Source: Escherichia coli | Lineage (GTDB): Bacteria > Pseudomonadota > Gammaproteobacteria > Enterobacterales > Enterobacteriaceae | NCBI RefSeq assembly: GCF_003790525.1 | Contig: NZ_CP033635.1 | Reading direction: 5' to 3' (one strand) | DNA: 64,000 nucleotides | Shown here: positions 42,501 to 43,464 of the stretch, piece by piece | How the letters are laid out: each line of letters opens with the position of its first letter | Position numbering within the stretch: the stretch's first letter is position 1 | Made by a program: the position numbers and the translations under genes | The notes under the pieces: model-generated | Seen by the model: only the letters and a program-made list of their open reading frames with translations | Database searches by the model: none | What the model was told of the DNA's origin: nothing

Positions 42501-42857
42501 TTAATTTGAACCAAACTTCGGATCGTTTCCGTAACGATTGCTGCCAGAATTGCCTTCTAAACAGGCAAATACAAACAGAACTAACCAGCCAATGACCGGT
42601 ACCAGATAGAGAAGCGCCCACGCACCTGAACGGTCAGTATCGTGCAGACGACGAACGCACAGAGCAATGACCGGAATGATTGTTGCTGCCAGGTAAATGA
42701 GAGAAAGGAATGGAAACTCTAAACCTAAAATCAATTGAATGACATTGATAATAGCGCCGACGATGGCGTTAATCAGAGTAAACATCCAGTACTCTTTACG
42801 ACGTGCGCGACCAGAGAAACCAACATAATTTTTTAATACGGCTAAATACCACTGCAT
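42501..42857 (-). CDS. yhaI: DUF805-family inner-membrane protein YhaI (118 aa)
   Basis: [26 protein letters not shown]...; paralogue of the adjacent yhaH. Confidence 0.88.
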   Translation of the reverse strand: [118 protein letters not shown]

Positions 42858-43052
42858 AAAAACATCCCTTTAATTAAAAGTGACGAAAGTCTATTCCGGG
42901 TATTGTGTAAATGCTATTCGTATCTTTCTTTTTCGGATGTTATAAAGGTTTTGATATTTAAGATAAATACATGGTTATTTTTTATAGGTAATTTATATAA
43001 CGATATTGAAATATTTTAAATAAACATTAGTAAATTATTCATTCATCAACAT

Positions 43053-43075
43053 GATGATAAAAGCCGGATGAGTCA
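43053..43075 (-). terminator. Hairpin downstream of yhaH
   Basis: gccggatgagtcagacatccggc inverted repeat just after the yhaH stop on the minus strand. Confidence 0.6.
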
Positions 43076-43098
43076 GACATCCGGCGAGGAGATTTGTT

Positions 43099-43464
43099 TT
43101 AAGGTTCCAGTTTTGGATCAGGTCCAAAGCGGTTTTCGCCTGGCGTACCCGCCTGGCAGTTAAAGACGATGATAATAAGCCAGCCGATAAACGGGATTAA
43201 GAACAGCAGTGCCCACCACGCCGAGCGGTCGGTGTCGTGCAGGCGGCGGAACTGAACTGCCCACCATGGTAAAAACACCAGAATACCGTAGATTGTCGTC
43301 AGGATGCCTTCGCCACCGGCACGTTGCCAGCCTAACATTTTATCCAGTAGCCCCAGCACGAACGTAAAGATGATGTTGACCAGAATAAACATCCAGTACT
43401 CTTTGCGCCGCGCACGACCCCGGAAACCGACATAATTTTTTAGTACTTTCAGATACCAGTCCAT
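43099..43464 (-). CDS. yhaH: DUF805-family inner-membrane protein YhaH (121 aa)
   Basis: ORF 43099-43485 trimmed to [26 protein letters not shown]. Confidence 0.88.
   Translation of the reverse strand: [121 protein letters not shown]

Follow-up and report, generated by a model that had tools for sequence, protein, structure and literature searches.

yhaH and yhaI of Escherichia coli are ancient DUF805 paralogues of unequal status: a core gene and an accessory neighbour

Introduction

Two adjacent genes encoding small membrane proteins of the DUF805 family, yhaH and yhaI, lie on the minus strand of a 64,000-nucleotide (nt) stretch of Escherichia coli DNA (RefSeq assembly GCF_003790525.1, contig NZ_CP033635.1; "the window", with positions counted from its first letter). 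A reading of this DNA from its letters alone (the sequence-only reading) took the almost identical N-termini of the two proteins as the sign of a tandem duplication. The locus raises the question of whether the pair is a local duplication, whether it is expressed as one unit and how the two genes came to stand side by side. Both are already known, annotated E. coli y-genes, and a 2024 review of the E. coli y-ome names them among its clustered uncharacterised genes (PMC11551758). We report here that yhaH and yhaI are ancient paralogues and not a fresh duplication: yhaH is a conserved core gene of the Enterobacteriaceae, and yhaI is an accessory add-on without which about one fifth of E. coli live. 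The pair probably consists of two intact, separately transcribed DUF805 genes, the core yhaH and an accessory yhaI acquired by recombination. The anatomy, paralogy, distribution, junction and cassette described below come from the present analysis, the regulation and the phage phenotype from published papers, and the silencing, the direction of transfer and the oligomerisation are inferred.

YhaH and YhaI are ancient paralogues

The two genes and their ribosome-binding sites are:
42501..42857, minus strand: yhaI, 118 amino acids, DUF805 (open reading frame list and PF05656 match)
43099..43464, minus strand: yhaH, 121 amino acids, DUF805 inner-membrane protein (open reading frame list and PF05656 match)
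42865..42870, minus strand: Shine-Dalgarno sequence of yhaI, AAGGGA, 7 nt before the ATG, in a block conserved in Citrobacter rodentium
43470..43473, minus strand: Shine-Dalgarno sequence of yhaH, GAGG, 5 nt before the ATG, read from the sequence

Both proteins match Pfam PF05656 (gathering cut-off 25.7 bits) over positions 1-110/111 of the 111 of the profile, YhaI with 108.9 and YhaH with 120.9 bits, and in a 38-sequence alignment both keep all the signature residues of DUF805: the N-terminal W-Y...G-R-A-R-R-x-E-Y-W, R-R-L-H-D after helix 2, P...G in helix 3 and the tail N-x-x-G-x-x-P. The family alignment and RefSeq place the start of yhaH at the ATG at 43464 (the mechanical open reading frame list has it begin further out, with a TTG at 43485). 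Over 1.2 kb the sequence matches E. coli SMS-3-5 and other strains with 100% identity; there it is annotated as yhaH / DUF805 protein / yhaJ, and the gene order is that of E. coli K-12 (yqjG-yhaH-yhaI-yhaJ, with yhaH as b3103 and yhaI as b3104); yhaJ ends at 42450 and is convergent with yhaI.

The pairwise alignment suggested in the sequence-only reading gave 63/118 identities between YhaI and YhaH over the full length (BLASTP, 53%, E 2e-44), with 23 of the first 26 residues the same; together with the Pfam matches of both proteins and the shared strand, this bears out the description of tandem DUF805 paralogues with almost identical N-termini. The similarity is not limited to low-complexity membrane segments, which that reading had named as the outcome fatal to the relationship. 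The invariant or nearly invariant columns of the 38-sequence alignment lie mostly outside the hydrophobic cores, and the best conserved are non-membrane motifs: W3, Y4, Y11, F14, G16-R17-A18-R19-R20, E22 and W24 at the N-terminus; R73-R74-L75-H76-D77 and S81 after helix 2; P91 and G94 in helix 3; and N111, G114 and P117 in the tail, with NRFGxDPK among the best-conserved motifs.

The step from shared motif to tandem duplication did not survive. Because all of DUF805 carries the N-terminal motif as its signature (invariant family-wide, including the Bacillus, Paenibacillus and Streptomyces homologues in Firmicutes and Actinobacteria), it is no sign of a local duplication. The identity of YhaI to YhaH (53-56%) compares with 55-60% to the Streptomyces, Exiguobacterium, Rodentibacter and Alcanivorax homologues. 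At the DNA level, similarity is limited to the stretch encoding the family motif (78% over the first 96 nt of coding sequence); the regions upstream and downstream of the two genes are unrelated, with no repeat boundaries or duplicated flanks. In a neighbour-joining tree the enterobacterial YhaH clade (97% bootstrap) and the YhaI-like clade (78%) are separate, without support for the two as sisters. The gene at 43099-43464 has both the clade membership and the position (between yqjG and yhaJ) of yhaH, and the gene at 42501-42857 belongs to the YhaI-like clade; yhaI is moreover missing from many relatives.

A recent in-place duplication of yhaH within the E. coli lineage, followed by divergence, would explain the adjacency and shared strand of the two genes, their common length class, the 53% identity at full length and the close likeness at the start (23/26 residues, 78% over the first 96 nt). 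It is hardly credible in view of the following: synonymous sites are saturated between yhaI and yhaH (proportion of synonymous differences, pS, 0.74-0.82), against synonymous divergence (dS) below 0.1 at the flanking genes between E. coli lineages with and without yhaI; YhaI-like orthologues stand at the same locus in other genera; and YhaI is equally similar to Gram-positive homologues, with which it shares the family-wide motif.

The two lineages also differ in pace. YhaH is 84-88% identical to its Salmonella, Klebsiella and C. rodentium orthologues (87% for C. rodentium), and the closest relatives of YhaI outside E. coli reach 59-65%. Between E. coli and C. rodentium, nonsynonymous divergence (dN) is 0.09 for yhaH and 0.34 for yhaI: the YhaI protein lineage evolves about four times faster than YhaH.

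yhaI lies in an accessory block of 653 base pairs

The distribution of the pair in E. coli was counted over 5,426 complete genomes, and the junction of genomes lacking yhaI was counted with a 121-nt probe fully covered across it. A block-less hairpin junction was found in 1,008 genomes (~19%), including enteropathogenic E. coli (EPEC) E2348/69. yhaH stands alone between yqjG and yhaJ in E. coli Ecol_244 and E2348/69, Escherichia sp. E2562, E. marmotae, Salmonella enterica and Klebsiella pneumoniae, and the synteny yqjG-yhaH-yhaJ is kept in Salmonella, Klebsiella, E. marmotae and C. rodentium. We take E2348/69 and sequence type 131 (ST131) to belong to phylogroup B2. A contig search with YhaI returned no Escherichia locus, and outgroups were then found through protein look-ups; the GTDB representative of E. 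coli is probably a B2 type strain, which would lack yhaI. A fused yhaH/yhaI hybrid, considered for genomes with 46% coverage, was discarded: the alignment gave a clean absence of yhaI with yhaH intact.

Three-way DNA alignment delimited the segment present in one class of genomes and absent from the other:
42452..43104: accessory block, 653 base pairs (bp), holding yhaI with its terminator, the AT-rich spacer and, from yhaH, the terminator, the last codon and the stop

In block-less E. coli its place is taken by a 41-bp junction with a hairpin, TTAAGCACCTTGTAAAAGGTGCTTAA (-16.4 kcal/mol), running into the end of yhaJ (locus L001, 1552-1592). The hairpin common to the Escherichia genomes without the block is TTAAGCACCTTG.AAAAGGTGCTTAA, and the E. 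marmotae and Escherichia sp. E2562 junctions are the same as that of E. coli save for one or two substitutions. YhaH ends in ...KLEQE in block-less genomes and in KLEP in those with the block. Salmonella and Klebsiella have compact hairpin junctions, each its own. Guanine plus cytosine content (GC) at third codon positions (GC3) is 0.42-0.46 in yhaI (0.42 in the window allele) vs 0.61 in yhaH and yhaJ, which fits a foreign or a silenced gene.

Outside Escherichia, the C. rodentium pair (locus L084) has the layout of the window: yhaH, a terminator, a 223-bp spacer (GC 0.30), a yhaI-like gene, a GGGGC...GCCCC terminator and yhaJ. The order by yhaJ, the length and GC of the spacer and a terminator after each gene are thus common to both; the spacers are weakly alignable, with a conserved block around the ribosome-binding site. 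Unlike the window, C. rodentium has a YhaI-like protein only 59-63% identical (YhaH 87%) and a yhaI-like GC3 of 0.59, which is not depressed. Superficieibacter electus has three tandem DUF805 genes at the locus (L088, 2619-4360), of 145, 122 and 119 amino acids, and Intestinirhabdus alba (L086) has a yhaI-like gene only, with no yhaH.

These relatives give weight to a different history, in which the pair arose by an ancient tandem duplication at the locus in an early enterobacterial ancestor and was inherited vertically, the genomes with yhaH alone being the product of repeated yhaI deletions. The same gene order and similar AT-rich spacer in C. rodentium, the three copies in Superficieibacter and the yhaI-like gene alone in Intestinirhabdus are what it would predict; tandem DUF805 arrays arise repeatedly elsewhere, and IS1-mediated gene loss is seen in present-day E. 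coli. It would not lead one to expect a single, identical and well-formed hairpin junction with a ...KLEQE terminus in three Escherichia lineages if the deletions were independent, nor the distinct compact terminator junctions of Salmonella and Klebsiella, the GC3 of yhaI, atypical for E. coli, or a tree without support for YhaH-YhaI sisterhood. We consider this history unlikely, while giving it real weight, and favour the acquisition of the block by recombination.

E. coli carries two old yhaI allele classes

The window and K-12 differ in their yhaI. The YhaH proteins are identical, and the YhaI proteins are 85% identical. The difference is concentrated in one segment:
42546..42737, minus strand: divergent central cassette of yhaI, codons 41-104, helices 2 and 3, separating the two E. 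coli allele classes

At 56/357 nt the two yhaI genes differ, and 54 of these positions lie within gene positions 121-310, so that the ~190-nt cassette differs by ~30% of its nucleotides between the classes; elsewhere the differences are few (yhaH 7/366, spacer 3/241, yhaJ 14/897). Nei-Gojobori estimates for the cassette are dS 1.27, dN 0.19 and omega 0.15, against dS of 0.03 in the rest of yhaI, 0.09 in yhaH and 0.06 in yhaJ. For scale, the dS of yhaJ from E. coli is 0.48 to E. marmotae, 1.29 to C. rodentium and 1.54 to Salmonella; the cassette alleles are therefore as divergent as different genera. All 17 amino-acid changes in the cassette fall in or at the ends of hydrophobic helices 2 and 3, 15 of them hydrophobic for hydrophobic and two polar (L/T, N/T); the 18th difference between the alleles, A6S, is outside it. 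Because omega is 0.15 across the cassette, both alleles have been under purifying selection.

Among the complete genomes, ~2,082 carry the K-12 type and ~2,270 the window type, with no intermediate classes. A recombinant yhaI allele protein (P0004) is present in a large protein collection. RefSeq gives the name yhaI to one class only, and the window class is unnamed. The search of relatives found no donor of the cassette, and gene conversion from yhaH was rejected as the source of either version, nucleotide identity to yhaH being 50% (window) and 55% (K-12).

The K-12-type gene has a run of seven T at codons 99-101, which is absent from the window allele. Frameshifted K-12-type variants with 139-amino-acid and 131-amino-acid products, some annotated as "cytochrome" (P0062 with T6, P0076 with T8; also P0042), looked common in the large collection. 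Phase variation at this run was rejected: in the band of at least 99% identity, T6 accounts for at most 4 and T8 for at most 11 of the 2,082 complete genomes, and among the matches listed the exact frameshifts number two (T6) and nine (T8).

A decaying yhaI, a pseudogene in the making, would be in line with its dispensability in many strains, with the frameshifted variants in public data (P0062, P0076 and others), with the IS1 insertions and deletions at the locus and with a gene probably silent under laboratory conditions. The cassette omega of 0.15, the intact family signature residues, the rarity of frameshifts at the T7 run (~15/2,082 complete genomes) and the strong inducibility of yhaI all argue otherwise, and make such decay very improbable. 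An intact yhaI is the reading that we retain.

yhaH and yhaI are probably transcribed separately

The DNA between and around the genes has the following features:
42858..43098, minus strand: yhaH-yhaI spacer, 241 bp, GC 0.278, holding the yhaH terminator and the presumed regulated yhaI promoter
43063..43085, minus strand: yhaH terminator hairpin, GCCGGATG-N7-CATCCGGC then UUUUAU (terminator scan)
42473..42490, minus strand: yhaI terminator hairpin, GGGGCGA-N4-TCGCCCC then UUUUUAUU, between the convergent yhaI and yhaJ
43512..43540, minus strand: candidate yhaH promoter, TTTACT, 17-nt spacer, TATTCT (inferred; relaxed scan, 8/12 matches)
43020..43034, plus strand: candidate CpxR-box-like direct repeat, ATAAACATTAGTAAA, with one mismatch to GTAAA-N5-GTAAA

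The AT-rich gap of about 240 bp given in the sequence-only reading measures 241 bp, and its GC drops to 0.15 in 100-bp windows. The hairpin that the same reading had placed after yhaH is a terminator with a fold energy of -15.0 kcal/mol (z -4.69; 0/200 shuffles equally stable). The yhaI terminator is of similar quality (-16.3 kcal/mol, z -4.55; 0/200) and, because of its position between the convergent yhaI and yhaJ, probably serves both directions. With a Shine-Dalgarno sequence of its own, each gene has its own upstream region, also as described. No Rfam small RNA (sRNA) or riboswitch matched in the spacer. IS1 has altered the locus in present-day strains (L094 1009-1706, NZ_CM132969.1; L003 4101-4798, NZ_AP027716.1): in some it is inserted in this AT-rich DNA, and one genome has a lone IS1 in place of the two DUF805 genes.

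Upstream of yhaH, the candidate promoter predicts a leader of ~41 nt, in agreement with the -43 boundary of a Salmonella yhaH reporter fusion (PMC5137417). Further up, a cluster of REP-like (repetitive extragenic palindromic) repeats lies at ~43560-43720, between yqjG and yhaH, and 43662-43698 gives a weak, sub-threshold match to Rfam naRNA4 (27.6 bits vs a cut-off of 59.5).

Ler is an antagonist of H-NS, and the operons of the locus of enterocyte effacement (LEE) in enterohaemorrhagic E. coli (EHEC) are AT-rich loci silenced by H-NS and activated by Ler. Published data show unlike regulation of the two genes: on CpxR overproduction in K-12, yhaI rises 3.2-fold by array and 40.3-fold by quantitative reverse-transcription PCR, and yhaH 1.9-fold (PMC2731931); Ler raises yhaI 36-fold in EHEC, as its strongest target outside the LEE pathogenicity island (PMC3891560); and in Salmonella, where yhaH stands without yhaI, the sRNA SdsR represses yhaH as a validated direct target, and the YhaH protein rises towards stationary phase (PMC5137417). 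The absence of yhaI from E2348/69 fits a Ler activation reported in EHEC only. The terminator between the genes, the separate Shine-Dalgarno sequences and the unlike published regulation support the separate transcription of yhaH and yhaI, which had been thought probable from the sequence.

One operon encoding an obligatory two-subunit protein, with the spacer as a long intercistronic region, has little to recommend it beyond the shared strand, the natural fused two-domain DUF805 proteins, the closely set tandem genes (gaps of 11-70 bp) of Flavobacteriia and Hafnia and a U-tract after the yhaH hairpin (UUUUAU) short enough to make some read-through plausible. A stable terminator hairpin (-15 kcal/mol) stands between the genes, followed by the 241-bp AT-rich gap and the Shine-Dalgarno sequence of yhaI; the responses to CpxR are ~20-fold apart (40-fold vs 1.9-fold) and those to Ler also unlike; yhaH works alone in ~19% of E. 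coli and in many genera without yhaI; and mutation of yhaH alone gives phage resistance. The chance that this explanation holds is in our view very small.

Since Ler antagonises H-NS and the spacer is AT-rich, the spacer may keep yhaI silent by silencing of the H-NS type. AT-rich regulatory DNA, a GC3 below that of the neighbours and a patchy distribution, three of the marks of an H-NS-silenced, horizontally acquired gene, are present. yhaI shares AT-rich upstream DNA, low GC3, patchy strain distribution and the 36-fold Ler activation with the LEE operons. It differs from them in that it lies outside any mobile element or pathogenicity island, in that H-NS binding is here a supposition, and in that CpxR overproduction is also a strong inducer.

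Predicted structure and topology

Where the sequence-only reading allowed two or three transmembrane helices, the AlphaFold2 model of YhaH (predicted local distance difference test, pLDDT, 90.6) has an N-terminal amphipathic helix and three long hydrophobic helices (20-44, 54-77 and 82-103). Lys+Arg are unevenly placed: the N-terminus plus loop 2 have 7+3 in YhaH and 5+3 in YhaI, vs 2+2 and 0+2 on the other side. This charge bias and the model suggest an N-in/C-out arrangement. A dual-topology pair of the EmrE/MdtIJ/Fluc type was rejected, YhaH and YhaI sharing the same Lys+Arg bias.

Natural DUF805 proteins supply further evidence on topology. Some carry C-terminal FHA, HEAT, TPR or zinc-ribbon plus HEAT domains and no additional membrane helix (among P0246, P0250, P0253, P0263, P0264, P0271, P0372, P0343, P0348 and P0363), two-domain fusions have the same charge pattern in both halves, and the screen in which YhaH fused to green fluorescent protein (GFP) took part admitted only proteins whose C-terminus is cytoplasmic. 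The signals for the two orientations would be reconciled if the third segment were re-entrant around the invariant P91 and G94.

Head-to-tail arrays of two or three DUF805 domains, with short polar linkers between them, occur in many natural proteins, and tandem DUF805 genes arise independently in Polaribacter, Aquimarina and Hafnia. Like the two- and three-domain proteins (P0246, P0253, P0264, P0372), the window keeps its units together, with complete signature motifs in both; unlike those covalent fusions, it has them as two genes set apart by a terminator and regulated independently. For a synthetic YhaH-linker-YhaI chain, AlphaFold2 with an alignment of natural two-domain proteins gave a pLDDT of 86.7 and a predicted template-modelling score (pTM) of 0.68. 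On these grounds we tentatively propose that DUF805 proteins may work as dimers or small oligomers, a proposal that we rate as possible and no higher.

YhaH, phages and the DUF805 family

Lambda, HK97 and N4 use the inner-membrane phage entry factors ManYZ, PtsG and NfrB, respectively. In E. coli TK001, a frameshift or stop in yhaH blocks infection by PhiWec188 and PhiWec190, two phages of the Stephanstirmvirinae; infection is regained with a wild-type copy, and the authors describe YhaH as an inner-membrane requirement beyond the recognition of lipopolysaccharide (LPS) (bioRxiv 10.1101/2024.11.29.626071; PMC12695924). YhaH-GFP mislocalises without YidC (PMC3225971). The likeness of yhaH to the genes of the known entry factors is genetic only: when its inner-membrane product is lost, specific phages are stopped at some point after LPS recognition, complementation makes the cells infectable again, and YhaH has no homology to any of ManYZ, PtsG or NfrB. 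The earlier statement that the function of these proteins is unknown holds for DUF805 biochemistry and is partly outdated, since yhaH now has this infection phenotype.

Membership in an anti-phage defence system was discarded as an explanation, neither YhaH nor YhaI matching the PADLOC defence models at E <= 0.01. PHROG 12855 ("membrane protein, moron") matches the two proteins. Among phage genomes, few records have a DUF805 gene (13/50,697). The Shigella Shiga toxin (Stx) phage 75/02 (L093 3971-4360; NC_029120.1 ~16334-16723) and POCJ13 carry an intact, unannotated DUF805 open reading frame of ~125-129 amino acids, 32% identical to YhaH, antisense in the nin region in a moron-like position. 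The family as a whole is very large, with 27,909 clusters at 50% identity matching at E <= 0.001. The 90%-identity cluster of E. coli YhaH includes a 76-amino-acid partial protein labelled Enterococcus faecalis (P0411, on a 229-bp contig), probably a contamination.

Discussion

The history that we favour would begin with an Escherichia ancestor carrying yhaH alone and the 41-bp hairpin junction, the pair itself being old in the Enterobacteriaceae. Non-B2 E. coli would then have gained, or regained, the block from an enterobacterial lineage in which both genes were already present, as they are in C. rodentium, with homologous recombination taking place in the flanking yhaH and yhaJ. Inside yhaI, a second recombination would have swapped the ~190-nt cassette and given rise to the two allele classes. 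In the resulting locus the AT-rich spacer would silence yhaI in the manner of H-NS, and envelope stress (through CpxR) or Ler would release it. The DUF805 proteins may be inner-membrane dimers or small oligomers that jointly present the conserved basic and His-Asp motifs at the membrane face, with YhaH as the standing form, exploited by some phages, and YhaI as an optional isoform or alternative subunit under Cpx or Ler control, in assemblies of its own or mixed with YhaH.

Several observations weigh against parts of this account. As to history, the direction of gain or loss rests on parsimony and on a junction from three Escherichia lineages (E. albertii and E. fergusonii left out); Citrobacter, Superficieibacter and Intestinirhabdus have YhaI-like genes in this position, which makes the pair old and leaves room for repeated loss, even in an Escherichia ancestor; and the tree backbone has bootstrap values below 20%, which is compatible with an ancient tandem duplication at the locus. 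As to regulation, a scan of the spacer for sigma-70 promoters gave weak matches at best (<=8/12) and no good one, the CpxR-box-like repeat has no statistical weight (66 matches in the window vs 55 +/- 8 in shuffles), and our literature search found no publication on H-NS binding to the yhaI spacer. As to structure and function, the domain fusions and the GFP data suggest a cytoplasmic C-terminus, in conflict with N-in/C-out; the search for an informative structural relative of the YhaH model, including in the PDB, found none; the pTM of 0.68 of the synthetic chain is only moderate; and no gene neighbour recurs beyond the genus level in 77 loci from other taxa. YhaI as an alternative subunit of a YhaH-type unit has no direct support, and we hold it with low confidence, much below that given to the oligomers themselves.

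A bolder proposal, and one that we regard as improbable, is that yhaI encodes a mobile, normally silenced subunit which, once induced by Cpx or Ler, joins or replaces YhaH and so alters genome delivery or establishment by YhaH-dependent phages, the phages in turn keeping the polymorphism. If this were true, phage-driven balancing selection would maintain the presence and absence of yhaI, the two old cassettes side by side and the DUF805 genes on Stx prophages.

The accessory 653-bp block, the retention of the ancestral junction in ~19% of genomes and the two yhaI cassettes are, as far as we could find, undescribed, and of specialist interest. To describe the pair as "core gene plus accessory paralogue", and no longer as a "tandem duplication", is of consequence for pan-genome annotation, since in RefSeq just one yhaI allele class bears the gene name. 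The pair is otherwise ordinary annotated E. coli content, and its value is as an entry point into the very large DUF805 family: E. coli offers a natural series (yhaH alone, yhaH with either of the old yhaI alleles, and IS1 deletions of both), together with a selectable phage phenotype for yhaH and strong, specific inducers, CpxR and Ler, for yhaI.

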